DNA of 35,910 bases from Promethearchaeota archaeon (GTDB lineage: Archaea > Asgardarchaeota > Lokiarchaeia > Sigyniarchaeales > SOKP01): NCBI GenBank assembly GCA_016930515.1, contig JAFGGO010000186.1, positions 1 to 35,910 on the forward strand, in the 5' to 3' direction. Under the pieces are notes generated by a model that worked only from the letters and a program-made list of their open reading frames with translations, was not told the origin of the DNA and searched no databases. The position numbers and the translations under genes are program-made. Numbering within the stretch: position 1 is the first letter of the stretch; the number at the start of each line of letters is the position of its first letter. Positions 8,594 to 34,729 of the stretch are shown in pieces.

Positions 8594-8793
8594 CAATGGT
8601 TCCCTATATTAATGAAGTTAAAAAACTTATAGAAGACACTAAAATACCAGAAATGCAATCTCAAAGAAAAAATAATCCTTATTCGTATTTATTTTCTTAT
8701 TGGTAATACCCGCTTCTCTTTTCGGGCAATTTGCTTCCTTTTGCGGATCGAACGATTTCTATAACATCTAAAACAATTGAAGATTAATGCACT

Positions 8794-8893
8794 GGGGGTT
8801 AATTTTATACCACCCGGCGCCAACCAGCGGACCTGTCTTGTATATCACTTGCATGATTATTACAAGAACGCTTCCTAATTTAAATTAACCCCC
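8794..8893. repeat. 100-bp element bounded by a perfect 12-bp inverted repeat (GGGGGTTAATTT ... AAATTAACCCCC) with an internal hairpin; structured RNA or MITE-like
   Basis: IR arms at 8794-8805 and 8882-8893. Inner stem TCTTGTA (8837-8843)/TACAAGA (8861-8867). No target-site duplication found. Confidence 0.5.
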
Positions 8894-9075
8894 GCCTTAA
8901 CCTCTTTCTCGAGACCTGAAGATTATTGGTCTTGTATAGCCGATTAATCAAAAAAAAGGTAGAAACGCCGATTAGGAGGTTTCTAAAGGCAAAATAAGCC
9001 AATTACATGGATAATATTAAAAAAAATTTAAAGAAATAAATGGAACTAAACATCTTTTATAAAAAATTTATGAAT

Positions 9076-9618
9076 TTAGAAATTGATTTTGATCTTTGTA
9101 TTTTTTTTTCCTTCCCAAGATTTTTCTAGGAAACTCGAACCAACTGTTTTTTTGTCCGTACAAATTTCAAAAAATCTTTCGTTCCACCCCTTTATTAAAT
9201 AGTAGTAGTTTTCAAAATCGGGTTCTGAATCCGTATATGTTATAACAATCTCGTTGTCTGAAACGAAATTATAATCCATTTGGCTAAAGTTGAAAATCAT
9301 ATTATGAAAGCGTTTATATCTTTCCATTGCCAATTTAACATTTCCCTCAGCAACTATCTGTTTATAAAGGCTTTTCATCATTCCATCACAGAACTGTTTT
9401 CCCCATTTTACAACTATTTCTTTTTTACCTCTTGCTACCACATTAACAATGGCGTTCAAACCCTCTTTATAAGCCGCCAGAGGATACCATGCTGAACTTA
9501 ATATCCTTTGTTGTAAAAATTTTTTTGTTTCATCGGAAAGATTATCATAAGCTCCAGTCTTATTTGCTTTTATTACCTTGACAACTTCTTTAAACATTGA
9601 CCCTTTTACTTGTTTCAT
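9076..9618 (-). CDS. V4R/H-NOX-like small ligand-binding protein (DUF2378-like)
   Basis: VKGSMF...ILSSAWYP...WGKQF...YYLIKGWNERFFEI pattern of H-NOX/V4R-fold proteins. Divergent from the acyl-CoA ligase. GGGAG upstream of the ATG. Confidence 0.55.
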   Translation of the reverse strand: MKQVKGSMFKEVVKVIKANKTGAYDNLSDETKKFLQQRILSSAWYPLAAYKEGLNAIVNVVARGKKEIVVKWGKQFCDGMMKSLYKQIVAEGNVKLAMERYKRFHNMIFNFSQMDYNFVSDNEIVITYTDSEPDFENYYYLIKGWNERFFEICTDKKTVGSSFLEKSWEGKKNTKIKINF

Positions 9619-9676
9619 TCGACTCTATCTCCCTAATTTTTAAAAGAATTACCGTAAACCATTTAATTTATATTTG

Positions 9677-9778
9677 AAAAACTATAAATATATGAACATC
9701 ATTCATTTATACAAACTTAAGTAAATGATTTGTTGTTCATTTATACCAATCTAAGTATATGAATGGTAGTTCATTTAT
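9677..9778. promoter_or_regulatory. Three phased 34-bp units, each with an ATGA(A/T)-N5/6-TTCAT palindrome followed by TTAT; candidate TetR-family operator array
   Basis: TTCATTTAT occurs at 9702, 9736 and 9770 (exact 34-bp period). Units 2 and 3 are 27/34 identical. Confidence 0.7.
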
Positions 9779-10006
9779 TTAAAGATTGACTTATCAATAA
9801 AAAAGCTTAAGAACGATGAAACTTCATAGAAGCAATATTGAATGCGTATCTCGTTATAAAAACATTGAATTACCCAACACATCTAAAACCTATATTCAGT
9901 ACTACTATTCTAATACACTCTTAAATCTATATTCGAGATACGATTGAATTTACATATAAATCTAATAAATGAATATAATTTAAAAAAAATGAGGTAATGA
10001 AATAAC

Positions 10007-11794
10007 ATGAAAGAAGAATGGTTCAAACACCCAACGAATCTTGTCGATCTTCTTGAAGATTCTGTGAAAAAATTTGGAAAACGTAACTACTTTGGCACAA
10101 AAAATCCCAACGGTGATTACGAGTGGGTCACCTACGAACAGGTAGGTGCTCGCGTTGATAATCTCCGTGGAGGTTTAGCAAAGATTGGTTTGAAAAAGGG
10201 TGATACTGTAGGAGTTATAATAGATAATAGCGTGGAATGGGCGGTTATCGCATTTGCTACATATGGCATAAACGCTCGATTTGTTCCAATGTATGAAAAA
10301 GAATTAACAAAAGTTTGGCAATACATCGTTAAAGATAGCGGATTGCGATTCTTGTTTGTAGCGGATAATGAGATTTATGAGAAAATAAAAGGATTTAAGG
10401 AAGAAATAGGCACATTAGAAAAGATCTTCCTTATTCGAGGCGAAGGAGAAAGTAGCATGGCAGCTTTGGAAAAATTAGGAGAACAAAATCCAATTCCTTC
10501 GGTGAAACCCCATTGGAGCGATATTGCTGCAATCATTTATACTTCGGGAACCACGGGAGATCCAAAGGGAGTGCTCTTGAGTCACGGGAATTTCACATCC
10601 AATTTCCTATCCTCATATAAATTATTCCCAAATTTTGACGAAAACGATGTTACCTTCGGGATTTTGCCCTGGGCACACGTATTCGGTCAAACATCAGAAT
10701 TGTACTTGAATACGTATCGAGGCATGTCGTGTGGTTTGATGGATACTACCTTAACTTTAATGGAAGACATTGTAAAAGTGAAACCGACAGTATTAATGTC
10801 AGTTCCGAGAGTCTTTAATAACATCTACAACGGCATTCATTTAAAAATGAAGGCTGCGGGTCCTGCCGTGGAAGGTGCGTTTAATAAGGCAAAAGAAACT
10901 GCCAGGATATTAAGAGAAGGAGGAACTGTATCCGAGGAAGATAAAAAAGCAATGGAAGGCATGTTTCAAAACTTGCGCGGAATGTTCGGAGGTCGGCTTA
11001 GATTATCGTCGACGGGAGGTGCCACCATGAATCAGGAAATCGCACAATTTTTCATAGACCTTGGAATTCCTACTTACGATGGATACGGAATGACTGAAAC
11101 TTCTCCTGGTATCACGGCGAATTATCCCTCAGCAAATAAATTAGGTACAGTCGGACGGCCCTACGAAAATGTCACTGTTATCATTGACAAGTCACTCGTA
11201 GGCGAGGATAGCCAAGACGGCGAGATCATCTGTTATGGTCCAGGTGTGATGCAAGGATATCATAACAAGCCAAAAGAAACCGCAGAAGCCATGGTAGAAG
11301 ACCCGGTGTTAGGAAAGGGCGTTCGAACGGGTGATAGAGGATGGATCGATGAGGAAGGATTTTTACACATTACGGGCAGGTTTAAAGAGGAATACAAGCT
11401 CGAAAACGGAAAGTACGTACACCCCGCTTCCATCGAAGAAGCAATCAAGTTAAGCCCGCTCATAGCGAACGTGATGATCTATGGAGACGGTAAGCCTTTT
11501 AATGTCGGCCTCGTGGTTCCAGATCCCGTGATGTTGCCAATATTTGCTAATAAAATAGGAATCACTGAAAAGGATCTTTCAAAGCTGGTGGGAGATCCAA
11601 ATATTCAAAAACTCCTTGAAAATACAATCATGAACCAGTTGAAAGATGGTTTTGGAGGATATGAGATTCCTAAGAAACTCGTATTTACAGCAGAGGACTT
11701 TACTGTTGAAAATGGACTTCTCACGCAAACGATGAAATTAAAACGAAGAAATGTTCTCCAGAAATACGGGGATAAATTGAATGCTCTTTTTTAA
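10007..11794 (+). CDS. fadD: Long-chain fatty acid-CoA ligase (AMP-forming)
   Basis: IIYTSGTTGDPKG, LPWAHVF, SVPRVF, GYGMTETSP, RTGDRG, ITGRFKE, and FTVENGLLTQTMKLKR (C-terminus typical of long-chain ligases). GAGGT SD. Confidence 0.92.
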   Translation: MKEEWFKHPTNLVDLLEDSVKKFGKRNYFGTKNPNGDYEWVTYEQVGARVDNLRGGLAKIGLKKGDTVGVIIDNSVEWAVIAFATYGINARFVPMYEKELTKVWQYIVKDSGLRFLFVADNEIYEKIKGFKEEIGTLEKIFLIRGEGESSMAALEKLGEQNPIPSVKPHWSDIAAIIYTSGTTGDPKGVLLSHGNFTSNFLSSYKLFPNFDENDVTFGILPWAHVFGQTSELYLNTYRGMSCGLMDTTLTLMEDIVKVKPTVLMSVPRVFNNIYNGIHLKMKAAGPAVEGAFNKAKETARILREGGTVSEEDKKAMEGMFQNLRGMFGGRLRLSSTGGATMNQEIAQFFIDLGIPTYDGYGMTETSPGITANYPSANKLGTVGRPYENVTVIIDKSLVGEDSQDGEIICYGPGVMQGYHNKPKETAEAMVEDPVLGKGVRTGDRGWIDEEGFLHITGRFKEEYKLENGKYVHPASIEEAIKLSPLIANVMIYGDGKPFNVGLVVPDPVMLPIFANKIGITEKDLSKLVGDPNIQKLLENTIMNQLKDGFGGYEIPKKLVFTAEDFTVENGLLTQTMKLKRRNVLQKYGDKLNALF

Positions 11795-11845
11795 ATAATC
11801 CTTTTTTTTATATATTTTTAACATTAATTAAAATGGTGATATATT

Positions 11846-13174
11846 ATAGAATCGAAACAAAAAGGTTTAATATTTAAGATCCAAAGAACTGCTACTGACG
11901 ATGGCCCAGGCGTTCGCACGACGATCTTTTTTAATAAATGTCCTCTACATTGTGCATGGTGTGCTAATCCAGAATCAATTCCGAAAACACCTCAGTTACA
12001 ATGGTTGGATCATAAATGCATTGCTTGCAAGAGTTGTATCGATGCTTGCACTCAAGGAGCTTTGTTTTTTGAAGATGATGGCTTGCACATAATAAGGGAA
12101 AAATGCAATAGTTGTGGTGATTGCGAAGAAGCTTGCCCGAGTACGGCATTAACCTTAGTAGGCAAGTGGTGGAGCTCAGAAGATCTCTTTCACGATGTTG
12201 AGAAGGAAAAGATTTTTTTTGATAAGACGAAAGGAGGTATTACCGTTTCTGGGGGCGAACCCACCTTACAATCCGAATTTTTACTGGACTTTTTAAAATT
12301 GTGCAAGGAAAACGGCATTTCTACTGCACTAGACACTTGTGGATACGCTAGCCAACAAATCTATGAAAAATTAATGCCGTATGTTGACATTGTTCTCTTA
12401 GATTTAAAAGTGTTTGATTCTGATAAACACGAACAATTTACGGGCGTCCCTAATCAAACTATTTTGCGAAACGCAGAATGGATTTCGGATTACGTGAATC
12501 AACACGGAAAAAAGATATGGATTAGAACGCCCTTAATACCGAATTATACCGCCACGGACGATAATGTAAGAAAGATTGGAGAATTTATCGTCAATAATTT
12601 AAAAAACATACCAGAACAATGGGATTTACTAAGCTTTAATAAAATGTGTGAAGCTTCGTATTTTAGATTAGGTATATCGTGGATTCTTAAAGACGAACCA
12701 TTAATGACGAAAGAACAAATGGAACATTTTCAGGAAGTTGCCCAGAGCACTGGAGCTAAAAATGTAAAATGGTCTGGTTTAACTAAAAAAGAAGGAACGT
12801 CTCTAGATGAGGTAGAAAAAGAGGAAAAAAGATTATCCGCACAAGACGCTTTCGATCACATGGCAAAGGTGTTTAAAAAGGACGAGGCTTTAAAGTTGGA
12901 AGAAAAAGTCGTCATGCAATACAATGTTAGCGGCCCGGGAGGAGGCACCTGGCAACTTGTCCTCGAAAACGGGGAATATAAGATATCCAAAGGGGAATCA
13001 ATCAAGGAAGTCTCCTGTACGATGAGTTACGACAGTTTAGAGAGTTTCGTGGGGCTCAGGAATGGGACACTTGAGCCCATACAAGCCTTCATGTCAGGCA
13101 AGGTGAAATTCTCCGGAAATCAGGCAATTATTCAAGAAATAGGCAAGATTTTTCCACTTGGTAAGGGAAATTAA
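11846..13174 (+). CDS. Glycyl-radical enzyme activating enzyme (radical SAM, with ferredoxin insert) fused to a C-terminal SCP2 lipid-binding domain; 442 aa from a non-canonical ATA start
   Basis: The frame upstream of the track's start (12005) reads ESKQKGLIFKIQRTATDDGPGVRTTIFFNKCPLHCAWCANPES (CxxxCxxC). Two CxxCxxCxxxC motifs, GGITVSGGEP and LDTCG follow. From about 12833, MQYNVSGPGGGTWQL...GTLEPIQAFMSGKVKFSGN is SCP2. SD GGTGAT at 11835-11840. Confidence 0.9.
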   Translation: MESKQKGLIFKIQRTATDDGPGVRTTIFFNKCPLHCAWCANPESIPKTPQLQWLDHKCIACKSCIDACTQGALFFEDDGLHIIREKCNSCGDCEEACPSTALTLVGKWWSSEDLFHDVEKEKIFFDKTKGGITVSGGEPTLQSEFLLDFLKLCKENGISTALDTCGYASQQIYEKLMPYVDIVLLDLKVFDSDKHEQFTGVPNQTILRNAEWISDYVNQHGKKIWIRTPLIPNYTATDDNVRKIGEFIVNNLKNIPEQWDLLSFNKMCEASYFRLGISWILKDEPLMTKEQMEHFQEVAQSTGAKNVKWSGLTKKEGTSLDEVEKEEKRLSAQDAFDHMAKVFKKDEALKLEEKVVMQYNVSGPGGGTWQLVLENGEYKISKGESIKEVSCTMSYDSLESFVGLRNGTLEPIQAFMSGKVKFSGNQAIIQEIGKIFPLGKGN

Positions 13175-13180
13175 TAATTC

Positions 13181-13196
13181 TTTTCTTTTTTTTCTT
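13181..13196 (+). terminator. Oligo-T terminator after the activase gene
   Basis: TTTTCTTTTTTTTCTT directly after the stop codon, in a convergent intergenic region. Confidence 0.45.
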
Positions 13197-13435
13197 AATT
13201 TTTAAGCTTATCTGAGAATATTTAATAAAAATATTTGTGTTTGTAAATTAGTCGTAATATTTTATAGATGTTGTCTCTATAATCAAGGCGTCAATAGTAT
13301 AATTTATAATGTTTTCCTGATTGATTTTTTCTATATCAAACATATTCTATTTTCTAAAATAATATATAATAAAGTTAAAAAATAAAGATTAAAAAAAAAG
13401 AGTATATTTCCCGTTTTAAGGAAAAAAATACTCAC

Positions 13436-15898
13436 TTATATTTTATTAAATTCCGTTCGAGCAATGATATCGTCTTGAAGTTCTTTTCGAAGGTCAATGA
13501 AACGAGCAGAATACCCCGAAACCTTTACTGAGAGATCGGGATATTTTTCAGGATGAGCTTGGGCATCCTTTAAGGTTTCCGTGCCTACGGGGTTTATCTG
13601 AAGATTTCTACCACCTAACTCAAAAAAGGCTTCAACCATCGAAGCCATCTGATCTAATCCTTCTTCGGTTGATATCGTGCTAGGAGAGATTCTAACATTA
13701 AACGTGACTCCATTTGTCAAAAGAGCGTCCTTAGTGGCGTACGCCGCTGAACGGAAAGTCATTGTAAGACCGTTTTTTTCCGTTCCATTGACCGGAGAGG
13801 TTCCATTTGCCACGGGCTCACCATATACCCTTCCATCTGGCGTTGCACCTAACATTTTTCCTTCCATTGTATGCGTTCCAGAAGATACGCAACAAGGGTG
13901 ATAAATTCCATCACCGCCTCTTGCCTTGTATTGTCTCGTGATATCACACACTGTTTCTGCAACCCATTTTGCAAGCGCGTCAACCTTTTCATCGCCATTA
14001 CCGTATTTAGGTGCCTTGTTTTTAAGCATTTCTCGGATTTTTTCAGCGCCCTTAAAATTATTGCGAAGATGATTAACCAGTTCCCCCATTGTAAGTATTT
14101 TCTCTTCGAAGACTGCCCATTGTATCGCTGCTAAGGAATTGGCCACCGTAGCGATGCCTTGTGTACCCATTGGATTGTTGTTATAAATCGCTCCATTTCG
14201 AGTGCAGTCCAATCCTTTCTCTAAACAACCTTCAATGGTAGAAGAAAGCAGCGGTGACGGAAAGTAATCCGCAAACGCTTTATCCTTGAGTTCTGCTTTC
14301 TTCACGGTCAAATCTATCGCGTATTTCAATTGTTCTACAAAGGCATTCTTCACGTCCTCAAGAGAGGTAAAAGTGCTTGGATCGGGAGTTTTAAGGCCGA
14401 TAGATTTCCCTTTTGACATGAGGGTTCTTCCTTCATTTAGCGCCGTCATGAAAACAACTGAGAGCCAGATACCATTTCCTGCCGTATAAGAGAAGTCGTT
14501 TCCAGTACCATGAGGTTCCACGCATCCAACGATCGAATAATTCCTGGCATCTTCTAACGAATATCCCGTTTTATGAAGCTGCGGAATTAATATCTCGTCG
14601 TTATGGAACGCCATTCCCGAGGTATGTCTGAACGCTTCAACTGCTCTTTTAACGAAATCATGGGATGATTTTGAAGATATTCGTATGGATATGGTATTTA
14701 ACAAGCTTTTCACGTTTGATACTGCTTCTAAAAACAAGTAGGACACCTCGTTCGTTGCGTCCATCCCTTGTTTATCCACACCACCTATGGTCACATTGTT
14801 TTGTCCCGCAATGACGACGGTTGAGAGTTTCACCAAATACTCTTCAATTGCCTCGACTGCTTCTGCGTGAGTTAAACGCCCTTCTGCGATATCAGCCCGG
14901 TAGAAGGGAATGAGATATTGGTCCACGCGTCCTTGAGAGAAGATATTACCCTCACCATAGCTCATTTCCATCACGACATTAGTCATCCAAATCGCTTGAA
15001 TTGCTTCCATAAAGGTTCGTGGAGGAAGCGCTGGCACTCTCCTGGCGCGTTGGGCAATATCAATGAGATCCGACCTTCTTTCTTCTGATGCGGTCTTTGA
15101 CATTTCCATTGCCAAGTCTGCGTAGCGATTTGAATAATCGCAAACAGCTTTTGCGGTAATCTGAGCGGATTCAAGAAAATCCTTCCTGTATTCATAGTTC
15201 TCGTCGGTCTCCTTGAGTTTTGAAAGCTGTTCTACGGCCATCTTTTCAATACCCTTGAATCCCATTTGCAAGACACGCGGATATCCTGGAATTGTATGTC
15301 CTTGCATTCCCGCAAATGCTATAGAATTGGATCCCCCTACGGAGAACATGGGAATTTCAGGCACATCATCGTCTTTTTCGTCGATTAATCCTGCTTGTTT
15401 AAAATATTCGTTTTTTCTGGCATCTAAAGTCTTTCCCTTCCAGAAAGGAACGATTTCCTCTTTCATTTCCCTGAGTTCTTCTTCTGAAAGCGGTTTGTAC
15501 CTATCAAAAAGAGAATACATGGTGCGGAAGTACGCCTTGAGCTTTGGATCGATAGTATCATCAAGGAGAAAACCAAATACTCCGACTTTTCTTCCTTGTT
15601 CAATTTCCATGGGATCCGCTCTCACTCGACTCGATTTCTTACCCACGAGTAACTCGGCATCATCGATTCTGATAGGGATGCATCGCAAATATTCCTCCAA
15701 CGATTTAGCTTTTTTCATGCCGGGAGGTGCGTTTTCCATCTGCTTGTATATTCTGGTATAGCATCGTGCTCGTTCAAGATCGTACTCGAAAGGATGAGAT
15801 AGCATCTCGTCTCTAATCTTTCCAACCCTCTCAGAGGGGTTTCCTCGAAGAGGGGCTGCATTAAAATTTTGAACTACCATATGATAATAAACGACCAT
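13436..15898 (-). CDS. Glycyl radical enzyme, PFL2/eliminase-like, substrate unknown
   Basis: Cys loop YSIVGCVEPHG (C459) and Gly loop LSVKVSGYSARF (G795), plus SQGRVDQYL, APKYGN, GATPDGR and LQDDIIART. The true start may be the second ATG at 15880. Confidence 0.92.
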   Translation of the reverse strand: MVVYYHMVVQNFNAAPLRGNPSERVGKIRDEMLSHPFEYDLERARCYTRIYKQMENAPPGMKKAKSLEEYLRCIPIRIDDAELLVGKKSSRVRADPMEIEQGRKVGVFGFLLDDTIDPKLKAYFRTMYSLFDRYKPLSEEELREMKEEIVPFWKGKTLDARKNEYFKQAGLIDEKDDDVPEIPMFSVGGSNSIAFAGMQGHTIPGYPRVLQMGFKGIEKMAVEQLSKLKETDENYEYRKDFLESAQITAKAVCDYSNRYADLAMEMSKTASEERRSDLIDIAQRARRVPALPPRTFMEAIQAIWMTNVVMEMSYGEGNIFSQGRVDQYLIPFYRADIAEGRLTHAEAVEAIEEYLVKLSTVVIAGQNNVTIGGVDKQGMDATNEVSYLFLEAVSNVKSLLNTISIRISSKSSHDFVKRAVEAFRHTSGMAFHNDEILIPQLHKTGYSLEDARNYSIVGCVEPHGTGNDFSYTAGNGIWLSVVFMTALNEGRTLMSKGKSIGLKTPDPSTFTSLEDVKNAFVEQLKYAIDLTVKKAELKDKAFADYFPSPLLSSTIEGCLEKGLDCTRNGAIYNNNPMGTQGIATVANSLAAIQWAVFEEKILTMGELVNHLRNNFKGAEKIREMLKNKAPKYGNGDEKVDALAKWVAETVCDITRQYKARGGDGIYHPCCVSSGTHTMEGKMLGATPDGRVYGEPVANGTSPVNGTEKNGLTMTFRSAAYATKDALLTNGVTFNVRISPSTISTEEGLDQMASMVEAFFELGGRNLQINPVGTETLKDAQAHPEKYPDLSVKVSGYSARFIDLRKELQDDIIARTEFNKI

Positions 15899-16086
15899 CG
15901 TACATTTAAATTTTTGCTTCTTGTTTCATAAGTATTTTAATAATTCTTCTACCATTTCATATTTCTTATATTTTTAAAGGAAGAAGAAAAATTGAAAAAA
16001 GGAAGGAAACACGAATTTTCGACATTTTTAGTATATTCACATAATAATAAAAATAAGAAAAGATATGGAAAATTCAAACCTTACTT

Positions 16087-17769
16087 TTAAACGCTTTTAT
16101 CCAAAGAACGAGGGGGATTAACGCACCATATAGAATGTCCTTCTTCTATTTTGATCTCATGGGGCATTTCTATTTCGCATTCTTTTGTACGCGCATCTGA
16201 AGAGCAACGTGGATTAAAAGCGCACCCTGACGGAGGATTTAAAGGACTGGGAATTTCTCCTTTAATCACATACTTTATTTCTTGGTCGTTCGGATCAATT
16301 TCTGAGCGCGAAGTAAAGAGTGCAATACTATAAGGGTGAGATAGGTTATTAAAGACTTGCTCTGTACTTCCAATTTCTACGAACTTGCCAAGATACATGA
16401 CTGCCACGCGATCTGCGATGTGATTCACAACGGCTAAATTATGAGTGATAAATAAAAATCCATACCCAAATTCCGCTTGTAAATCTTTTAGAAGATTGAG
16501 AATTTGTGCTTGAACGGAAACATCGAGCGCAGATGTGGGCTCGTCTAGAATGATTAAATCGGGATTACAAGCCAACGCTCTTGCTATGACTATTCTCTGC
16601 TTTTGACCACCAGAAAATTCGTGTGCATATCGATCCAGATGTTCGCGCTTCAAAGAGACTTTATCCAACAATCTTAACACGTACTTTCTTATTTCTGCTG
16701 TATTCGTGATACCAAGAAGATTTTTTAGTGGTTCGCCAATAATGTCAACTATTTTCATACGAGGATTCAACGAGGCGTCTGGATCTTGAAATACCATCTG
16801 AATTTTTTGTCTTAAATCACTCGGATATTCTTGAGGAACAGGATCACCCTTGAATAAGATTCCACCGCTTGTTTTTTCTATTAATCCTAAAATGGATTTA
16901 GCGATGGTAGTTTTTCCACATCCGCTTTCTCCTACCAATCCAACCGTTTCTCCCGTTCGAACGCTAAAAGATACGCCGTTTACTGCTTTTATAGCGCCAA
17001 CTTGTCTTTTTAGAACTCCTTTAAAGAGGGGATAATGGATGTGAAGATCTCTTACTTCAAGCAAGGTTTTACCTTTCTCGTGAACGGTTAAATCTCTTAA
17101 TTCTTGGAATTTTATTGTTTTATAAAAAATTTGTTTGATCAATTTTATGGAAACAATCGCAATAATTAAGCTAGTGATGGTATAAAGAAAAACATCATTC
17201 TCGAAAGATTTAGGGTTATAAATAAAAAGATACAATAACACCAAAATCGCTGGGGAAATACTGCTGAATGCGAATGTTCTTCTGAATTTAATTAATTGAA
17301 CTTTATCGCCCCAGTATACTAAAAAAACCGAAAGTCCTAAAAGAAAAATAAATGCAGCAAGAAATTGAAGCTTTATAATGTTTAAATCCGCATCTTCCGT
17401 AATCATTAATATGCTAAAAAGGCCCTGAATTGCGCTTAGAAATAACCAAATCACTAAAAGCACAACTTGGATCGAGCTAAAATACTTAAGCGAATCTAAC
17501 AGGTCTTGTTTGAAAATACTCCAAGAGATCGCAATGGCGGCAATTAAATTCAATGCACAAGGGATTACTTTAAAAAATAATTGGTCGCTAAAATTCAACA
17601 AAAGAATATATATCAAGATTGTATTTAAAAAAAACCATATGATATTGATTACTAACGAAATGACAAATGATCGTTCCCATTTCCTATAAACCAAGTATTT
17701 TTTCGTCATCACGAAACCAACAATGAATAAAATCGCGTTTACAATGATAATTTCAATTATATCAGTCAA
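16087..17769 (-). CDS. oppF: Opp/Dpp-type ABC ATPase (OppF-like) with an N-terminal multi-pass membrane domain
   Basis: GESGCGKT, QMVFQDP, FSGGQKQR, LIILDEPTSALD, FITH, and the C-terminal HPY/Cys motif (GCAFNPRC). The first ~215 aa are about 7 hydrophobic helices. TTG start with GGTGAT SD. Confidence 0.9.
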   Translation of the reverse strand: MTDIIEIIIVNAILFIVGFVMTKKYLVYRKWERSFVISLVINIIWFFLNTILIYILLLNFSDQLFFKVIPCALNLIAAIAISWSIFKQDLLDSLKYFSSIQVVLLVIWLFLSAIQGLFSILMITEDADLNIIKLQFLAAFIFLLGLSVFLVYWGDKVQLIKFRRTFAFSSISPAILVLLYLFIYNPKSFENDVFLYTITSLIIAIVSIKLIKQIFYKTIKFQELRDLTVHEKGKTLLEVRDLHIHYPLFKGVLKRQVGAIKAVNGVSFSVRTGETVGLVGESGCGKTTIAKSILGLIEKTSGGILFKGDPVPQEYPSDLRQKIQMVFQDPDASLNPRMKIVDIIGEPLKNLLGITNTAEIRKYVLRLLDKVSLKREHLDRYAHEFSGGQKQRIVIARALACNPDLIILDEPTSALDVSVQAQILNLLKDLQAEFGYGFLFITHNLAVVNHIADRVAVMYLGKFVEIGSTEQVFNNLSHPYSIALFTSRSEIDPNDQEIKYVIKGEIPSPLNPPSGCAFNPRCSSDARTKECEIEMPHEIKIEEGHSIWCVNPPRSLDKSV

Positions 17770-17797
17770 GATTACAGTATCACCTTTTATTTTGTTA

Positions 17798-19681
17798 TTA
17801 TTTCATATTTTCTGCTTTTTTCTTTGAAATTTCCGCCTGCTCTTTATATTGAGGATCGTATAGGTGGCAAGCCACTACATGTTGTTGATCGATGTGAATC
17901 CTTTTTGGATCAATTGAATCACAAGGTTCGAAACAATATTGACACCTTGGATGAAATCTACAACCTGAAGGAGGATAAATTAGGTTTGGTACCGTTCCAG
18001 GTATCACGGTAAGCTTGTCTTGTTTTTTCCCTACAACTGGAATTGAATTTATCAAGCCTTTTGTGTAGGGATGATATGAATGAGAAAATATTTCTTGAAT
18101 TTTACCATATTCAACAACAGAACCGCTGTACATTACCGCAACATGATCGCACATCTTTGAAATAATTCCGAGATCGTGAGAAATGAACAATATAGTTGTC
18201 TTGTATTTCTGATGGAGCTCTTTCATAAGTTTTAAGATCTGGTTTTGAATCGTAACATCTAAAGCGGTGGTAGGCTCGTCTGCTATCAAGAGTATAGGCC
18301 TACATGCCAAACCCATCGCTATTTGTACCCTTTGTCTCATTCCACCACTTAATTCGTGCGGATATCTTTCAATGATCACTTCGGGATGGGGGATATTTAA
18401 ATCTTTCAACAACTTGATACTCCACTCTCGAGCTATACTATAAATACTTTTATCATCATGTTTGGATGCTTCGACAAGTAGTTCGTCTTGCATGTGCAAC
18501 AAAAAGACTTCAGATATTTGATTGCCAATTTTAAAGACAGGATTCAGTGAATTAAGAGGATCTTGAAAAATCATGGTGATGTCTTTTCCTCGGTATTGTA
18601 ACATTTCCCTTTCCGTCTTTTTTAGCAGATCTTCTCCATTAAAAACAACGCTCCCTTTTTCTATCACACCCGGAGGGCGAATTAATCGAAGAACTGACAA
18701 GGCGCTCACGGATTTTCCACAACCCGTTTCACCTACCAAACCAAGAACTTCCCCTTCACGAATATCAAAAGAAACGCCTTCCAAGGCACGAACAACGCCT
18801 TCTTCCGTGTAAAAGTATGTCGTGAGATCCTGTACATCAAGAATTACTTGTTTATCTTCCGTTGTCATGTTGAACTTGCTCTCGCGTGAGGTTTGCTGTT
18901 GTTCCAAGAAAGATATTGATTGTTGGATCCTTTGGTTGCTTTTTGTTCTAGCTTTAGGCAAAAATATTTTCTTTAAAGATACGATTAACACGGTGGTGTA
19001 GATAACTGCTACAACGCAAAGTAAAACTCGAATGTCTTGTTGAAAGAGAACAATATTAAAGAGTCGTTTTAAATATAATTCAAAAACGATGAGTTGAATA
19101 GCCCAAATTCCATAAGAAACCATCCCTCCTGAATACATTGCGTATTTAAGGGGTTGTTTAGGAATCCGTTTTTCAATTGGAAAAAATTTATTAATCAAGA
19201 TAGTCAATAAAATATTAAATCCAACCGCAAAAGCAGCCCAATAAAGACCTAGCTCGAAAAGGTCGTATTCGTACATGGGAATCCCAAAGAGAGGAATCGT
19301 CAAGAATATACCCGCAATTATCCAAACTATGATTATGAAAAATTTTATTATTCTAAGAAAAGGACTGTTATAAAATTGTTCCTTGGTAATGGAACCAAAT
19401 TTAAAAACGAGTTTCTTATATAGAAAATAGAAGATGGTCAACATGACACCAAACACCAAAAAATCATTAACAAAAAGCACGAAAAAGTAGACATATCCCC
19501 ATAAAGTCTCGAACAAAAACCTAAATTCAATGCTTATTTGTAACAAGATGATTGAACATGCTGCCGAGCATCTTCTGTGCGGAATTTTCGGAATTTGCTT
19601 GTTTTCTGGAATTTGATTGTTGATGATTAACGAAACAATGTATAAAATGAACGCTGCAATTATTGAATCAATAATTGCCAT
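17798..19681 (-). CDS. oppD: Opp/Dpp-type ABC ATPase (OppD-like) with an N-terminal multi-pass membrane domain
   Basis: GETGCGKS, MIFQDP, YPHELSGGMRQR, LLIADEPTTALD, HPYT, GCRFHPRC. The first ~235 aa are about 7 hydrophobic helices. Confidence 0.9.
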   Translation of the reverse strand: MAIIDSIIAAFILYIVSLIINNQIPENKQIPKIPHRRCSAACSIILLQISIEFRFLFETLWGYVYFFVLFVNDFLVFGVMLTIFYFLYKKLVFKFGSITKEQFYNSPFLRIIKFFIIIVWIIAGIFLTIPLFGIPMYEYDLFELGLYWAAFAVGFNILLTILINKFFPIEKRIPKQPLKYAMYSGGMVSYGIWAIQLIVFELYLKRLFNIVLFQQDIRVLLCVVAVIYTTVLIVSLKKIFLPKARTKSNQRIQQSISFLEQQQTSRESKFNMTTEDKQVILDVQDLTTYFYTEEGVVRALEGVSFDIREGEVLGLVGETGCGKSVSALSVLRLIRPPGVIEKGSVVFNGEDLLKKTEREMLQYRGKDITMIFQDPLNSLNPVFKIGNQISEVFLLHMQDELLVEASKHDDKSIYSIAREWSIKLLKDLNIPHPEVIIERYPHELSGGMRQRVQIAMGLACRPILLIADEPTTALDVTIQNQILKLMKELHQKYKTTILFISHDLGIISKMCDHVAVMYSGSVVEYGKIQEIFSHSYHPYTKGLINSIPVVGKKQDKLTVIPGTVPNLIYPPSGCRFHPRCQYCFEPCDSIDPKRIHIDQQHVVACHLYDPQYKEQAEISKKKAENMK

Positions 19682-19745
19682 TCCGTAATTGAATGGATCG
19701 CCAATATAAAATAAAAATGAATTTGAAATTTTAATATCCCTCTTT

Positions 19746-20747
19746 TTATAATTTTAGTCGCGGATCTAAAGCGTCCCGCAAACCATCTCCTAATAATATA
19801 AATCCAATGGCCGTAATCGCAATAAACATTCCTGGAGCGATGGTAGCCATCAAGTTAGTGTAATTTAAATATTTAATTGTAGCAACATATATATCAGTCC
19901 CCCAACTCATAATAGTTGGGTCCGAAAAGCCTATAAATGCAATACCAGCCAGCCCAATTATAGCAACAGCTGCTCCACCAAAAAAAGCGATTAACATTGG
20001 TGAAAGAGTGTTTGGTACGATATGCTTGAACATTAGCTTGAATTTTTTCGCACCACCAACTTTTGCTGCTTGAATGAATTCAAGCTGTTTTACTTGCAAA
20101 ACAAGCGATCGCATTAATCTAATGTTGAACGGAATAAATAATATTCCAAAAATAATTAGTGTTGTAATTAAATCACCACTAATCATTGGCGCAAGAATAA
20201 TGATCAAGATCAAGGTGGGAAAAGCATACATCACATCAACAAAACGCATCATCAAGTAGTCAACAATTTTCCCAAAATAGGCAGAAATCGTTCCCAATAT
20301 GAGTCCCCCTCCAATTGAAATCGTGACGGGAATTATTGCTGTATAAAGGGTTGTTCGTGCGCCCCAAATGATTTTTGCTAACACATCATAACCCTCCTCT
20401 GCCGTTCCGAATGGATGTTCTAACGATGACGGGCTAAATGCTAATTCATATGATGGAAAAGGCGGAAATAGGTCCTGTAATGGATACTTAGTCAACCAAG
20501 GGGCAAAAATTCCCATGTAAACTATAAATAATATCATTATAATCCCAAGAATCGTTAAAGGCTTGAGAAGATGACGGAATAATCGCCTCTTTGATTTTAC
20601 CTTGTCTATTTCCCGTTCCCGTTTGGAAAATTCTGGATCCCGCCATCCAGGGATCAAATAAAACTTTAAAAATCGCAATACTTGGTTTTTCTTTTGATCT
20701 TGGGATTTATTTTTCTCCTCCACTTGTTGTGTAATTTCACTCATCAT
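19746..20747 (-). CDS. oppC: Opp/Dpp-type ABC permease (OppC-like)
   Basis: HPFGTAEEGYDV, EFIQAAKVGGA (EAA loop), KHIVPN, GDGLRDALDPR. Confidence 0.92.
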   Translation of the reverse strand: MMSEITQQVEEKNKSQDQKKNQVLRFLKFYLIPGWRDPEFSKREREIDKVKSKRRLFRHLLKPLTILGIIMILFIVYMGIFAPWLTKYPLQDLFPPFPSYELAFSPSSLEHPFGTAEEGYDVLAKIIWGARTTLYTAIIPVTISIGGGLILGTISAYFGKIVDYLMMRFVDVMYAFPTLILIIILAPMISGDLITTLIIFGILFIPFNIRLMRSLVLQVKQLEFIQAAKVGGAKKFKLMFKHIVPNTLSPMLIAFFGGAAVAIIGLAGIAFIGFSDPTIMSWGTDIYVATIKYLNYTNLMATIAPGMFIAITAIGFILLGDGLRDALDPRLKL

Positions 20748-20779
20748 TTTCGTTCGAATTCATTTTTTTTATTTTTAAT

Positions 20780-21844
20780 TTATTTGTAAGTAATCCTTGG
20801 ATCTATGATTGTATACATGACATCTGTAACTAAATTTCCAATGAGTATTATTATTGTACCAATAACTAAAAGACCATTAATTAGCAAATAATCCCCACCT
20901 AATATTGCCCATACCATAGTACGACCAAATCCATTGTACACAAATGTGACTTCAATGAAGAAAGAACCGAGCAAGGTCGTGGTGGTCCCTCCAATAATAA
21001 CATTGCTAACAGGAAGTAACGCATTGCGAAGAGCATGTTTATTAATGACATCACTTTCTTTAACACCTTTTGCCCGCGCAGTCCTTATATAGTCTTGATC
21101 TAGCACATCGAGCATGCTCGAGCGGGTTTGTCTTGCAATTGTGGCAAGCGAAACGAAAGTAACACACAATGCTGGAAGAATTAAATGCAATATTGTATCC
21201 CATAAAAATATTTGATCGTTATAGATAATACAGTCGATGAGGCGAAATCCAGTTGTAGGTGCGCCATCAGGAATGTTTAGTGCAAATCCTACAGAATTTG
21301 CTTTTTGTGTGGGGAAGTCCAAACTTTCTAGAGTAAAAAGAGGTAAAAGAAAGCCAAAAATAATTTTTACTATCGAACCAATCCAAAAAACTGGAAATCC
21401 TGCACCTAAAATGGCCACTGTCCTAATAGCTATATCTTTTCTAGTATCCTTATGGGTTGACGAAATGAGCCCCAATTTAACCGCAATGATTGGACTGAGA
21501 ATAAGGGGGATGATCATTAATTCTACGGTTCTTGGAAAGACTTGTGAGACAATCTGAAGAACTGGTGTTCCCGTAGTATCGATACCATTGGATATTCCCC
21601 AGTTTCCAGTAAAAAAATCTAAAAAATAATTTCCTAATTGTAGATACCATGGTGTATAATATCCAATCCGTTCTAATTCCATTTCGAGAAGATCAGGATA
21701 ATCCGCAAGGTTATTTGTAAAAGGATTAATAACCATGGCACGCGATAAGAAAAATGTCAATGTTAAGACGATCATTAACATTGGAAGCATCATCAATACT
21801 CTTTTTACGATGTATTTTATCATATTCGTTTGTTTCTTAGCCAA
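20780..21844 (-). CDS. oppB: Opp/Dpp-type ABC permease (OppB-like)
   Basis: YIVKRVL, HLILPAL, TRSSMLDVLDQDYIRTARAKG, KHALRNAL, DVMYTIIDPRI. Confidence 0.92.
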   Translation of the reverse strand: MAKKQTNMIKYIVKRVLMMLPMLMIVLTLTFFLSRAMVINPFTNNLADYPDLLEMELERIGYYTPWYLQLGNYFLDFFTGNWGISNGIDTTGTPVLQIVSQVFPRTVELMIIPLILSPIIAVKLGLISSTHKDTRKDIAIRTVAILGAGFPVFWIGSIVKIIFGFLLPLFTLESLDFPTQKANSVGFALNIPDGAPTTGFRLIDCIIYNDQIFLWDTILHLILPALCVTFVSLATIARQTRSSMLDVLDQDYIRTARAKGVKESDVINKHALRNALLPVSNVIIGGTTTTLLGSFFIEVTFVYNGFGRTMVWAILGGDYLLINGLLVIGTIIILIGNLVTDVMYTIIDPRITYK

Positions 21845-22418
21845 AGATCTTTCCCCGATTTTTTTTATTGTTACTGCAAAATGTTATATTCGTTAGTTTT
21901 CTTTTTTTTTTTAAATTGATGAGTTGTTTGACCTTCATTCCCATTATGGCTCCCGAGAGAGTCGTGATAAATAAAATAAACATGTGCAAATACCCCCTCC
22001 CGTCACCAAATAGATATATCAAGGGTTCAAGAGTAAAGCCAAACATGAGCGAATATAAGATACACGCTTCAACAACAAGAGAAGGAACTAGCCAGATTGA
22101 CGCTTTAATTCCGTAATGCGGAATGTCTTCTTTATAGGTGAGAAAAAAGCATACTACAAATACTAAAAGAATTGGTAAAAAAAACGCTTGTTCATACGCA
22201 TTGTACGTCCAAAACAATATAGTTCTATCCATTTCGGTAAAAGACAAATACTCGTCATTGCCGAGATACATCACCACGTTTGCAACGATTCCATAATAAC
22301 CTAATAATACGATCACATAAGCTAGGAATACGCCTCCTTGTCTTCCCCAATCTATTTTAACGCGCTTGATATCTTGTGCTTCTTTTTGGTGGTTTTTATT
22401 TTTTAATATCTTACCCAT
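21837..22418 (-). CDS. Uncharacterised membrane protein (~4 TM), first gene of the transporter operon
   Basis: Four hydrophobic segments. Overlaps the predicted oppB start by 8 nt, suggesting translational coupling. Confidence 0.7.
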   Translation of the reverse strand: MGKILKNKNHQKEAQDIKRVKIDWGRQGGVFLAYVIVLLGYYGIVANVVMYLGNDEYLSFTEMDRTILFWTYNAYEQAFFLPILLVFVVCFFLTYKEDIPHYGIKASIWLVPSLVVEACILYSLMFGFTLEPLIYLFGDGRGYLHMFILFITTLSGAIMGMKVKQLINLKKKRKLTNITFCSNNKKNRGKIFG

Positions 22419-22570
22419 ATGATCGATCCCAGACCCTTCTTTTCAATTAGTTGAGCAATATTGTATTATATGTATTTGTTGATTTTTATAGATATTTTTT
22501 TATAAAAATTCTTTGCAATACAATAATTTATATACAAAAAATTCTATCTATCATGTCAACCTTTAAATAC

Positions 22571-22631
22571 ATGTTTATCATTCGTTAATATTAAACTTTA
22601 GTAAATATGAACGTCATTCATTTATTTAAAG
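22571..22631. promoter_or_regulatory. Operator copy ATGAACGTCATTCATTTAT (22607-22625) plus a degenerate upstream copy (22571-22589)
   Basis: 22605-22625 matches 9690-9710 at 20/21 positions. TTCATTTATTTAAAG is identical at 9770-9784 and 22617-22631. Confidence 0.7.
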
Positions 22632-22682
22632 TTATAACTTTTCAACCAAACTAAAGTAAAATATATAGGAGTTTAATTAAAA

Positions 22683-24974
22683 ATGAAAAAAATGTCAAAA
22701 ACACTAGTAGCAATACTAGCCTTGTCTTCTCTCATGCTCACTGCAATTCCAATAGCACCCGTGAAAGCTCAAGGAACAGGGCATATTTTTACCGTAGGTT
22801 CTTGCGGACCAACAACTTATTATTATTGGGATATGGTAAACTACCTTGCAGGACGCGGGGATTATTACAGGTATAACGCCCTTGAAAGTATATATATTTG
22901 GCCTTACGACACACCAGATGGGAGCTTGGACAATTTAATTCCAGTACTCGCAACCGATTGGGATCCTCACTATAGGGCTAATGAAACGACGGACGCAGGG
23001 TTCATGGCGTACGAAGGAATTGACTACATTGACATCGTACTTCGAGAAAACGTGAAGTTCCACGATGGATCAGACTGGAACGCAAGTGTATTCAAATGGA
23101 ACATTGACCGGCTTTTCTATATTTTAGGAGATTTCGACGACTGCCTCCCTGACATACCAACAAGCTATTTGGACCCGAATTATGTAAACAGACTTGTGGT
23201 GGACGCCCAGAAGAATGTTTATTGGTTAGACATTGACGAATGGGTTAAATATGCAACAGCTAGTTGGAATGTATCTGATTATACACCTGGAGAATACGCT
23301 GACTTTGGGATATCCCAAGATTCGGATTTGAATGGGACCAACGGTAACTACTTTCCTCGCATTCGAAACGTTACGATAACTGATGACGCAGCATCGGGAG
23401 GAGAAGTTAGAGTGTATTTCAACGATTGGGGCGCAGGTCCAAATTCCCTTGCAAGTATATTGATGATTTCGCAAGCAGCCTACAAAGATAAGTTTGATGA
23501 GCCAATCAATGGTTACCACGCAGGAGATTTAATTGGCACGGGACCGTATGTTTTTGTGGACCACGACATGTTTCAGAATGAAGGGACGATGACGAGGTTC
23601 GCTGATTGGTGGAACTCAACAGCTCAGCAAGCCGATGGTTGGCATCAGATTGAAACCGTTGCGGTACGAACCTATGGTCACGACGAAACGGGATACGCAG
23701 CAAGAGCGGAAGCCTTGCTTGAAGGTGAGATCGATTACTTAGTTGATCGTGAATGGGAACCAATCCCAAGTTATTCCACCATCGCAACCGCGCCAGGAGT
23801 AAGCTATGTTGATATGGGAGTTGAACCGTACGGTGAACAACTGGTTTTAAATTGCGTGAACGAAACATATCTAAGGTATTGGTATGAACTTGGAATGAAT
23901 TGTTCAGGTATGGAAATGCCTAGTTCGATTGTTAACACAAACGGCTTATTAAAAGAATGCAACGGCCTGAACCGCGCTCTTAGAAAAGCCATTTCTTACG
24001 CATACGATTACGACTATTACGTAACATACGGCAAGCTTGATCGTGTAGTGCGCTCTGGAGGTCTTTTAGGAGTATCGAACGAGTTTTACGACGAAACCAT
24101 ACCACTCGCTTATCAGAACCTTACCATCGCAAGACAAGCGCTTCTCGATGATCCATACTGGGGCGCTCTATGTGCTGATAGACTTTTAGATATAAATAAT
24201 GATACCAGCGACTGGGAAGCTGTTGCTGCCGACAATCCACTGTATACATTACAATACACATACGACGCAGCTCATACGGCATCCTATACTACATTTGCTA
24301 ATTCTCTTCCACTCATAGGAATTGCTATCTCGGCAGTAAATTCCGCTCCGTCTAACGTATTTACCCTGGTTTCTCAGGGAGTTTTTGAATTTCTAAAGAA
24401 CGATGCCTTTCCAATTGCATCTTACCACTCAAAAATTAACGATATTGGGTACATCGAAGCGTATTTAAAAAGTCCTGAAATTATAGAACGACATCCATTA
24501 AACGATAGCAGTTATGCTTTTATCGCAGATTACCCTTATGACGACCCCGATGGACCTTACAATTACTCGTTGATACCAAGCACGACATTTAACTCTGTAG
24601 CAAGAAGTAACTATGGCTTCTCCTACAACAAGACTTCTAACGATCTAATCGCACAAATATACTTCCAAAACGAGACTGGAAGGGAAACATTATATCATGA
24701 ATTAGCAGAATGGGTACAGGATTATCAATATCCTGCCCTCTACTTAGGGAACGGAAAGACCGGTTTCGCCATTTCCGATGATTATGAATCTGAGTGGCTA
24801 TCTTGGTTATTCATATTCTCGTTTAGTCAAGTGAAATATATTGGGGGCGGTTCGGTCACAACTCCAGCTATCATTCCAGGATTCGAATTAGGCGTGTTAT
24901 TACCCGTTATGTTGTTAAGTCTTGCTGGAATTGCCTTCATTCTCTTGAAGAGAAAGAGAATGGCATTCAACTAA
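22683..24974 (+). CDS. ABC transporter substrate-binding protein, family 5, divergent, with a PGF/Loki-CTERM-like anchor
   Basis: Signal peptide, LRENVKFHDGSDWNASVFKWNIDR, IGTGPY, LRKAISYAYDY. C-terminal IPGF + TM + KRKR. 14 N-x-S/T sequons counted. GGAG SD. Confidence 0.88.
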   Translation: MKKMSKTLVAILALSSLMLTAIPIAPVKAQGTGHIFTVGSCGPTTYYYWDMVNYLAGRGDYYRYNALESIYIWPYDTPDGSLDNLIPVLATDWDPHYRANETTDAGFMAYEGIDYIDIVLRENVKFHDGSDWNASVFKWNIDRLFYILGDFDDCLPDIPTSYLDPNYVNRLVVDAQKNVYWLDIDEWVKYATASWNVSDYTPGEYADFGISQDSDLNGTNGNYFPRIRNVTITDDAASGGEVRVYFNDWGAGPNSLASILMISQAAYKDKFDEPINGYHAGDLIGTGPYVFVDHDMFQNEGTMTRFADWWNSTAQQADGWHQIETVAVRTYGHDETGYAARAEALLEGEIDYLVDREWEPIPSYSTIATAPGVSYVDMGVEPYGEQLVLNCVNETYLRYWYELGMNCSGMEMPSSIVNTNGLLKECNGLNRALRKAISYAYDYDYYVTYGKLDRVVRSGGLLGVSNEFYDETIPLAYQNLTIARQALLDDPYWGALCADRLLDINNDTSDWEAVAADNPLYTLQYTYDAAHTASYTTFANSLPLIGIAISAVNSAPSNVFTLVSQGVFEFLKNDAFPIASYHSKINDIGYIEAYLKSPEIIERHPLNDSSYAFIADYPYDDPDGPYNYSLIPSTTFNSVARSNYGFSYNKTSNDLIAQIYFQNETGRETLYHELAEWVQDYQYPALYLGNGKTGFAISDDYESEWLSWLFIFSFSQVKYIGGGSVTTPAIIPGFELGVLLPVMLLSLAGIAFILLKRKRMAFN

Positions 24975-24980
24975 TCCTTC

Positions 24981-24992
24981 TTTTTTTTTTTT
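24981..24992 (+). terminator. Oligo-T terminator
   Basis: T12 run starting 7 nt after the stop codon. Confidence 0.55.
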
Positions 24993-25119
24993 ATTATTAT
25001 TTTATTTTATTTCTGTATTTAAAAGTTAATCAATAGAATCATATTTTGCGAGAAGATATGAGATAATTATAGAGCACTAAACTTCTTTTAGGTAGTTTTA
25101 GCGTTACTTTTTAGGCTTT

Positions 25120-26169: not shown

Positions 26170-26213
26170 TGAATCCTTACCTTGAGAATATGTTTCAAAT
26201 TAATTATTAATAA

Positions 26214-27275: not shown

Positions 27276-27483
27276 ATATAATTTTGTTTTTTATTTGTTC
27301 TTTAAATTATATTTGCATATATTGTTTAATTTATTAATTTATTGTTCCCTCTTTAATCAAGAATATTTTTCTTAACTATCAAAATAATGCTAAAATTTTT
27401 TATAAAACATTTTTAACCAAAATTCAATTGTCAATACTTTATTATGAAATGATTTTTATTCAAGCACAATCATTCACTATATA

Positions 27484-34315: not shown

Positions 34316-34729
34316 TTTGTTTCCAATAATAATTTTATACCAAGTCTTATATGATAAATAGATTTTATTTTCAAAAAATTTCTTTTTTCTAAATTTCAAG
34401 AACGAATAACAAAAAATTTATAAAAAAGTAAGAAATTTAAAAATATGAAGGAAAACTCTAGTGTTATCTGTTGATAACACTTCTAATTTATCTCCTTCTT
34501 CTTGTACTACTATTTTATTAAGATTTAGAGGCGTAATTAAATCACCTCATACGATTATATTTTTGTCACCATAATAGTATATATCTCTTACATATCAATT
34601 CAAATACATGAACCAATCAAATAATTTAACTTTTAAAAACATGAATTTGAGGACTATAAAGATAATGGCATAACTTTTTAAACGAAGAAAAGACCATTAA
34701 TACAAATTAACTTATCTAATAAGAGAAAT

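Follow-up and report, generated by a model that had tools for sequence, protein, structure and literature searches.

A rare 21-bp palindrome in front of glycyl radical enzyme pathway genes of a Loki-type archaeon: a probable operator of an Asgard-specific TetR-family regulator

Among the closest described systems is that of FadR(Sa) from Sulfolobus acidocaldarius, an archaeal TetR-type regulator that has a dyad motif, no more than four sites in the genome and operators that overlap promoters (PMC6449355). A bacterial counterpart, FadR/YsiA of Bacillus, is known from the B. halodurans structure; its operator, GATGAATGAATACTCATTCAT, has arms 10 nt apart and is bound by a dimer of dimers (PMC5397183). 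As to the enzymes concerned, Asgard glycyl radical enzymes (GREs) with adjacent activases have been labelled alkyl- or benzylsuccinate synthases (Ass/Bss) in a paper on Hermodarchaeota (PMC8163825). We here discuss a palindrome that recurs in front of the genes of a GRE system in a stretch of 35,910 nucleotides from a Promethearchaeota archaeon (GenBank assembly GCA_016930515.1, contig JAFGGO010000186.1, positions 1 to 35,910). This stretch, henceforth the window, is an entire contig (C64) of an assembly of 4.0 Mb, 190 contigs and 35% G+C. Asgard archaea are the closest prokaryotic relatives of eukaryotes, and nearly all of their lineages are uncultivated. To our knowledge, their gene regulation is an almost unexplored field. 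The host being a Loki-type Asgard archaeon, promoters have to be read in terms of the B recognition element (BRE) and the TATA box, not of sigma-70.

The original prediction started from a near-identical repeat in two divergent promoters. The repeat is there. The 19-mer ATGAAC(A/G)TCATTCATTTAT is found at 9692-9710, in the intergenic region (9619-10006) between a leftward gene for a 180-aa protein and a rightward gene for an acyl-coenzyme A (CoA) ligase. It is found again at 22607-22625, in the region (22419-22682) flanked by a leftward operon for a 193-aa protein and an ATP-binding cassette (ABC) importer and by the rightward gene of a solute-binding protein (SBP). These are two copies in the window against 0.10 expected, with up to 3 mismatches allowed, and the 4.0-Mb genome holds no third copy at 2 mismatches or fewer. 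A 15-mer, TTCATTTATTTAAAG, likewise occurs at 9770 and 22617 as had been said; the whole genome has just these two copies. The palindrome ATGAA-N5-TTCAT, also claimed for both sites, is confirmed, and alignment with related loci reveals it as the centre of a longer, 21-bp palindrome, TAAATGAMC-N3-GKTCATTTA.

With a symmetrised matrix trained solely on sites of other genomes the whole genome was scanned. Five sites score 20.5-24.5 bits; the next best match reaches 16.1. A matrix made from seven non-coding foreign sites alone returns the identical five at 20.2-23.9 bits, the next best being 17.5. Ten genomes simulated with a first-order Markov model contain a mean of 0.1 matches at 20 bits or more. 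Each of the five stands in front of genes that are linked in function, encoding GRE, activase, two CoA ligases and two ABC importers. The idea that one operator links the ligase/activase promoter with that of the ABC transporter has thus fared well, since the motif is rare and stands before functionally linked genes. Because the two promoters share the site, the GRE, at the end of the ABC operon, is tied to its activase; the title of the original prediction alluded to this connection, of which its interpretation made no use. Judged from its sequence and position, the repeat is a rare palindromic control element that joins genes of a GRE pathway.

The sites differ in detail. O1 (TATATGAAC-ATC-ATTCATTTA, 9689-9709, 23.7 bits) lies between the 180-aa gene and the ligase gene and is kept in the closest relative (L043:7795). 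It is accompanied by O2 (TAAATGATT-TGTT-GTTCATTTA, 9722-9743, 19.1 bits) and O3 (TATATGAAT-GGTA-GTTCATTTA, 9756-9777, 21.8 bits), units 2 and 3 of a 34-bp tandem array, each with a 4-nt spacer. O3 and O2 are the best and second-best genome-wide matches of an arms-only matrix with such a spacer; in the first intergenic region there are thus three palindromes, the canonical one and two whose spacer is longer by one base. O3 merges into a TATA-like TTTATTTAAAG (to 9784), which it has in common with 22617-22631. The tandem array is not present in L043. O-SBP (AATATGAAC-GTC-ATTCATTTA, 22604-22624, 20.5 bits), between the 193-aa/ABC operon and the SBP gene, lies 58 nt upstream of ATG 22683 and is followed by a TATA-like TTTATTTAAA. 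A weak, decayed palindrome unit (22568-22588, 3.9 bits) is seen 36 bp upstream of O-SBP; in the SBP/ABC intergenic region of L047 (18401-18448) there are two full palindromes, 27 bp apart, of which the second corresponds to this decayed unit. A third full site in the window, O-GRE (TAAACGACC-ATC-GTACATTTA, 15888-15908, 23.1 bits), had been overlooked; it stands directly before the GRE gene. Elsewhere in the genome, the site at C161:59332 directly precedes a GRE paralogue of 66% identity, and the one at C48:12917 lies 305 nt before an operon for a Liv-type binding protein, two permeases, two ATPases, a HEAT-repeat protein and a second CoA ligase.

Other candidates were discarded. A 12-position core with 2 mismatches was too degenerate a search motif, yielding about 1300 matches whatever the spacer. 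Matrix matches of 17.5 bits or less have the scores of the maxima of simulated genomes, and such sub-threshold matches lie inside open reading frames (C89, C129, C139, C186) or before unrelated genes, namely those of an aminotransferase, DUF362 and a response regulator. The half-matches previously noticed before the TetR gene (27468-27477) and before a short-chain dehydrogenase/reductase gene (34608-34619) reach -3.4 and 0.7 bits at best and are not sites. The ligase paralogue on C76 (75% identity) has no site. The one suggestive sub-threshold match is TAAATGAACAATGTTCTCATA at C94:39741-39761 (L133:2741-2761; 16-17.5 bits), with an aldehyde:ferredoxin oxidoreductase gene 163 nt downstream of it and a 2-hydroxyacyl-CoA dehydratase component upstream. 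It would fit a route from the aldehyde product of an eliminase to an acid, yet its score is at chance level.

The palindrome is not a peculiarity of one genome. The comparison set comprises 49 GRE loci, searched with the window proteins by tblastn. A recurrent gene order is seen: SBP (-); 193-aa protein, permeases, ATPases and one to four GREs (+); activase (-); TetR (+). The general form TAAATnnAC-N3-GTnnATTTA occurs in 62 copies in these loci, against 8-17 in simulations, and nearly all 62 lie in control regions of the GRE cluster. About 20 end 25-29 bp upstream of a GRE start codon. Some ten are placed between the SBP gene and the ABC operon (L006, L008, L009, L014, L016, L021, L023, L024, L027, L047), and another ten or so between activase and TetR genes, 48-60 nt upstream of the TetR start. 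The footprint conservation that had been proposed as a check on the original prediction is thus evident: palindrome variants occupy equivalent places in dozens of Asgard GRE clusters. The bacterial GRE loci of the comparison set have neither the TetR nor the palindrome.

The inner bases of the palindrome vary by lineage. They read TGAMC in the window, L001-L003, L043 and L047, TTTAC or TTAAC in most loci and TCTAC in L004, L034 and L049; the latter three form one clade in the TetR tree. Within one genome, the inner bases of the GRE sites and of the TetR-upstream sites shift together.

The position of O-GRE depends on where the GRE starts. The longest open reading frame begins at 15898, within the palindrome. 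GRE homologues align just from residue 7, and L047 has an in-frame stop in the N-terminal extension, which makes ATG 15880 (MVVQNF...) the probable true start. There is no Shine-Dalgarno (SD) sequence upstream of it. O-GRE ends 7 nt upstream of this ATG (15880-15878). The centre of the upstream arm with TTTAAAT (15910-15904) lies some 28 nt ahead of the ATG, and a BRE-like GCAAAAA precedes this arm; the position matches the genome-wide peak of TATA-like 8-mers, at -30 to -26 from start codons. The spacing is equal at the C161 paralogue and in L001, L002, L003 and L047. Elsewhere among the lineages, 26-27 nt separate the end of the palindrome from the GRE ATG, and the downstream arm, GTAAAT+TTTAAA, falls at the BRE/TATA position expected for a leaderless mRNA. 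A site that overlaps either BRE/TATA or the stretch from TATA to start would fit this geometry, provided that the GRE mRNAs are leaderless.

A second, leadered class of genes shows SD-like motifs at -15 to -10 from start codons throughout the genome. The SBP, ligase and 180-aa genes have SD sequences; they probably have longer leaders, that of the ligase being 200-300 nt if the predicted transcription starts are right. The leaders of about 300 nt of the ligase and of the Liv operon have no conserved block in common. The ligase leader contains a perfect 9-bp inverted repeat, CGTATCTCG (9845-9853) and CGAGATACG (9934-9942), with an 80-nt loop, and both arms adjoin an ATTGAAT.

As to expression, a 2019 rhizosphere metatranscriptome assembly contains contigs that are 100% identical to 13588-15844 (GRE) and to 23014-24757 (SBP), the sole parts of 9000-25200 matched there. 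This is a weak hint that GRE and SBP are expressed. Since the RNA data consist of contigs only, neither starts nor strands can be read from them. The complete identity implies that the same or a near-identical strain was present in the sample of that study, perhaps in an active state. Two further RNA runs did not cover the window.

Which protein might recognise the palindrome? The gene at 27484-28155 (+), already named as the regulator in the original prediction, encodes a genuine TetR-family member of 223 aa. It has an N-terminal TetR_N helix-turn-helix (PF00440, 30.0 bits, cut-off 24), and its AlphaFold2 model (pLDDT, the predicted local distance difference test, 88.2) is an all-helical two-domain fold of 11 helices. 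Foldseek finds at least 229 PDB matches of the model at E 0.001 or better; the top-ranked of those listed are TetR-family structures. All source names given for its homologues are Asgard, and the family appears restricted to these archaea. At least 17 of the 49 GRE loci have a homologue in synteny with the cluster. Of 79 newly fetched TetR loci, 18 also hold a GRE, and 17 of these carry a palindrome. In other paralogous subfamilies a palindrome of their own precedes the TetR gene in the absence of any GRE in the vicinity; the palindrome architecture therefore goes with the TetR family as such. The assignment of this TetR as regulator remains reasonable in view of the synteny and of the palindromes often found upstream of its homologues; what it lacks is a site before its own gene.

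Some further TetR loci deserve mention. One subfamily (L109, L111, L116, L121, L124, L125) has a near-identical palindrome, TCAATATAC-ATA-TTATATTTA, some 135 nt upstream of the TetR gene itself (about 7866-7886 in most), and there is no GRE near these loci. In many Asgard loci without a GRE (L071, L073, L082, L097, L107, L108, L126; about 8001-9800 in each) the TetR gene is directly followed by a homologue of a 349-aa protein, an arrangement to be compared with 25120-28155 of the window. The pair may represent an ancestral TetR target pair. A third TetR of the genome, on C161 beside two distant GREs, is unrelated to the window TetR beyond the fold. It belongs to a second GRE cluster (C161:49800-59350; L051:3896-13367) with an activase, the two distant GREs (30-32%) and the 66% paralogue with its operator. 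Beside this cluster lie mevalonate-pathway genes and a squalene/phytoene synthase gene.

The GRE of the window (13436-15898, -, 820 aa) has its relatives of 63-88% identity, at 43 loci, exclusively in metagenome-assembled genomes of Promethearchaeota (Loki) and of Hel-, Hermod-, Hod-, Thor- and Odinarchaeota; bacterial matches reach 47-51% at most. Its Cys loop, IVGCVEPHG, contains the GCxE motif with the catalytic Glu, and its Gly loop reads KVSGYSARF. This is an eliminase signature. CutC, the glycerol/diol dehydratases and hydroxyproline dehydratase (HypD) match with E-values of 1e-111 to 1e-120 (CutC 3e-120), the benzyl- and alkylsuccinate synthases with 1e-61 to 1e-64 (TutD 2e-64, MasD 2e-61). 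By these criteria of sequence the enzyme belongs to the eliminase/dehydratase class. It stays below all NCBIfam equivalog cut-offs (TIGR01774: 548 bits, cut-off 678); the cognate activase passes TIGR02494. An assignment as X-succinate synthase is contradicted by the GCVE loop and the far weaker E-values. The Ass/Bss label of PMC8163825 therefore does not fit the window GRE, although the enzymes described there are of the same broad group and also have adjacent activases; neither a regulator nor an operator is described in that paper. The presence of two importers and of two CoA ligases suggests a route in which a polar substrate is taken up and undergoes a radical elimination, the acid that results being activated.

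The reading that we favour, and hold to be fairly probable, is that of a small, dedicated, GRE-centred regulon in which the palindrome is the operator of the Asgard-specific TetR, encoded here at 27484-28155. The 21-bp palindrome, the A/T-rich outer arms of which resemble archaeal TATA boxes, would most likely be bound by a dimer of this protein. The bound dimer would cover TATA/BRE or the TATA-to-start stretch and keep TBP, TFB and RNA polymerase off; a small effector, be it the imported substrate or a CoA thioester made by the ligases, would release the repressor. Covering these elements is the common mode of repression in archaea, as shown for Sulfolobus FadR (PMC6449355). Under such control would stand the ligase and activase genes with the divergent 180-aa gene, the Opp-type ABC operon with the divergent SBP gene, the GRE, the paralogous GRE elsewhere and the operon of Liv-type transporter and CoA ligase. 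What we see are the sites, how rare and how conserved they are, and the synteny of the TetR gene; TetR as the binder, repression, effector and transcription starts we infer.

Several observations weigh against this picture. The window TetR gene has no operator upstream (the best score there is the -3.4 bits mentioned), it lies 4.9 kb from the nearest site, and its product is just 35-47% identical to the activase-adjacent TetRs. The genome encodes a TetR paralogue of 38% identity on contig C176. In the N-terminal arm of the TetRs, K-T-R-x-R-(S/A)-P-E, the variable position is His in the three TCTAC loci and Ser or Ala in the other two operator classes; this covariation is only suggestive, because it is inseparable from shared descent, and the recognition helix hardly differs among the classes. 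The sites at GRE starts are not fully independent, because they occupy homologous positions of paralogous genes. The threshold of 20 bits was chosen after the score gap had been seen. Finally, the contigs of the RNA library may derive from DNA.

A bolder proposal would make the 21-bp element core promoter and operator in one, the arms being the TATA boxes and the centre the repressor contact, by which a CoA-thioester-sensing Asgard TetR clade would switch an Asgard-wide catabolic module. The module would consist of an Opp-like importer, the eliminase GRE, possibly aldehyde oxidation, and then the CoA ligase, with a substrate that is perhaps derived from a lipid or a polyol. We consider this doubtful. 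If true, no transcription-factor regulon of Asgard archaea would have been defined earlier than this one, and enzymes now labelled alkyl/benzylsuccinate synthases would be re-assigned.

The operator may also be real and have another binder, either the C176 paralogue or an archaeal regulator that is not a TetR. The missing operator upstream of the window TetR gene would be explained, the C176 protein has the same conserved DNA-binding motifs, and several long-flanked GRE loci are devoid of a TetR (L007, L009, L031, L040). However, the orthologs of the window TetR in L047 and L002 (75-76% identity) adjoin the GRE and have TGACC-type sites of 27-29 bits in their own control regions; in L047 (75%) the 27-bit site lies 161 nt upstream of the TetR start. 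Palindromes of the same architecture precede TetR genes family-wide, whereas the C176 paralogue has no site and its neighbours (YdjM, Na/H exchanger) are unrelated. A different binder is thus unlikely.

The original prediction had gone further and proposed a lipid regulon: beta-oxidation genes under a FadR-like regulator, released by long-chain acyl-CoA, with the Opp-type transporter serving lipid metabolism. The points in its favour are thin. The regulon includes two AMP-forming CoA ligases, the activase has an SCP2 lipid-carrier domain, and the FadR operator of Bacillus halodurans likewise contains the half-site TCATTCAT. Among the solved structures nearest to the TetR are those of the acyl-CoA sensors FasR, AibR and PvrA, if only by weak matches (E about 1e-5, template modelling score 0.55-0.65). 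Genes of beta-oxidation are present in the genome: seven for acyl-CoA dehydrogenases, seven or eight for enoyl-CoA hydratases and about five for 3-hydroxyacyl-CoA dehydrogenases. Yet no site is found near 19 such genes: the best matrix scores within 3 kb of them have a median of 5.5 bits, against 6.1 in random windows. The genome scan thus found its five rare sites and no enrichment before beta-oxidation genes. The central enzyme is a GRE of the eliminase type, to which no lipid enzyme is as near as CutC, glycerol dehydratase and HypD, the arms of the FadR box are N10 apart instead of N5, and the TetR matches no FadR model. Nor does the bacterial framing hold for an archaeon, in which promoters work differently. 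That the palindrome governs a lipid regulon is quite improbable, and a role of the Opp transporter in lipid metabolism cannot be concluded.

Least of all do we believe in a duplicated core-promoter module, i.e., back-to-back BRE/TATA elements that spread with the genes and need no dedicated regulator: TATA-like outer arms, GTAAAT+TTTAAA as BRE+TATA at the correct distance from GRE starts and the origin of O1-O3 by tandem duplication would agree with it, but the full dyad is kept between co-directional tandem GREs that need no leftward promoter (L010, L023, L024), conservation is highest in the inner bases AC-N3-GT, which are not TATA-like and vary by lineage, and there are only five copies per genome.

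The remaining genes of the neighbourhood complete the picture. The 180-aa protein (9076-9618, -), leftward of O1, is DUF2378/H-NOX-like without a firm Pfam family. It has at least 17 paralogues of 36-48% identity in the same genome, many of them in tandem arrays (C85, C101, C159 and other contigs; six on C85, four on C101). The AMP-forming acyl-CoA ligase (10007-11794, +; PF00501, E 3.7e-75) is below all NCBIfam equivalog cut-offs. It is followed by the GRE activating enzyme (about 11840-13174, +; TIGR02494, 218.8 bits), composed of a radical SAM domain, two ferredoxin clusters and the C-terminal SCP2 domain. The start of this gene is odd: the radical-SAM motif CPLHCAWC lies in a frame open from 11840 that has no ATG, GTG or TTG before 12005, an out-of-frame ATG at 11833 opens a frame of 14 codons, and a run of five A is seen at 11860-11864. 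A frameshift or a fault of the assembly could explain this (11833-12004), as could a start at ATA or ATT. The Opp-type operon (16087-22418, -) encodes the 193-aa membrane protein, two permeases and two ATPases with N-terminal extensions; the SBP (22683-24974, +; 763 aa) is of family 5 (PF00496). Between it and the TetR gene lie, at 25120-27275 (-), the genes of the 349-aa protein, which is of no known family, and of a CAAX protease. An Rfam search of the window gave no match.

What is gained by all this? The predicted regulon reveals the partners of an abundant, uncharacterised family of Asgard GREs: two importers, two CoA ligases and an activase. This family has been taken for hydrocarbon-activating Ass/Bss, but its active site is that of an eliminase. 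The effector of the TetR would point straight to the GRE substrate. A conserved operator and a small soluble TetR are, moreover, amenable to work purely in vitro, with synthetic DNA and recombinant protein. In a literature search we found no description of the palindrome operator or of the TetR. The Asgard-specific TetR clade, the predicted operator code with its lineage variants and the putative GRE-centred regulon would accordingly be new.

The kind of regulation is not. A local TetR-type repressor with a palindromic, promoter-overlapping operator is an already known type, for which an archaeal precedent exists. Bacillus FadR/YsiA shares with the predicted window system the TetR repressor and an operator with ATGAA...TCATTCAT (PMC5397183); it is bacterial, however, and here the arms are 5 nt apart and beta-oxidation targets are missing. 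No solved structure matches the TetR better in sequence than FasR of Mycobacterium tuberculosis (6O6N/6O6O/6O6P; PMC7382501), with E 8e-6 over residues 19-118, and FasR is also one of the top fold matches. With about 16% identity the likeness remains at the level of the general TetR fold, and FasR activates fatty-acid synthesis. To FadR(Sa) no specific sequence relation is detectable. Its motif is of 16 bp, as against 21 bp (15-bp core) here, and it controls lipases and beta-oxidation instead of a GRE system with ABC importers; the operator role in our case is a prediction from sequence. The two systems would nevertheless be alike as archaeal, local TetR-type regulators with a dyad operator, a handful of sites and, as predicted here, overlap with core promoter elements, and also in the autoregulatory site, present in many relatives, and in the contiguous catabolic cluster under their control (PMC6449355). 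By this analogy, a local TetR repressor with a core-promoter-overlapping operator, much like Sulfolobus FadR, appears to be the best model for the palindrome of the window.

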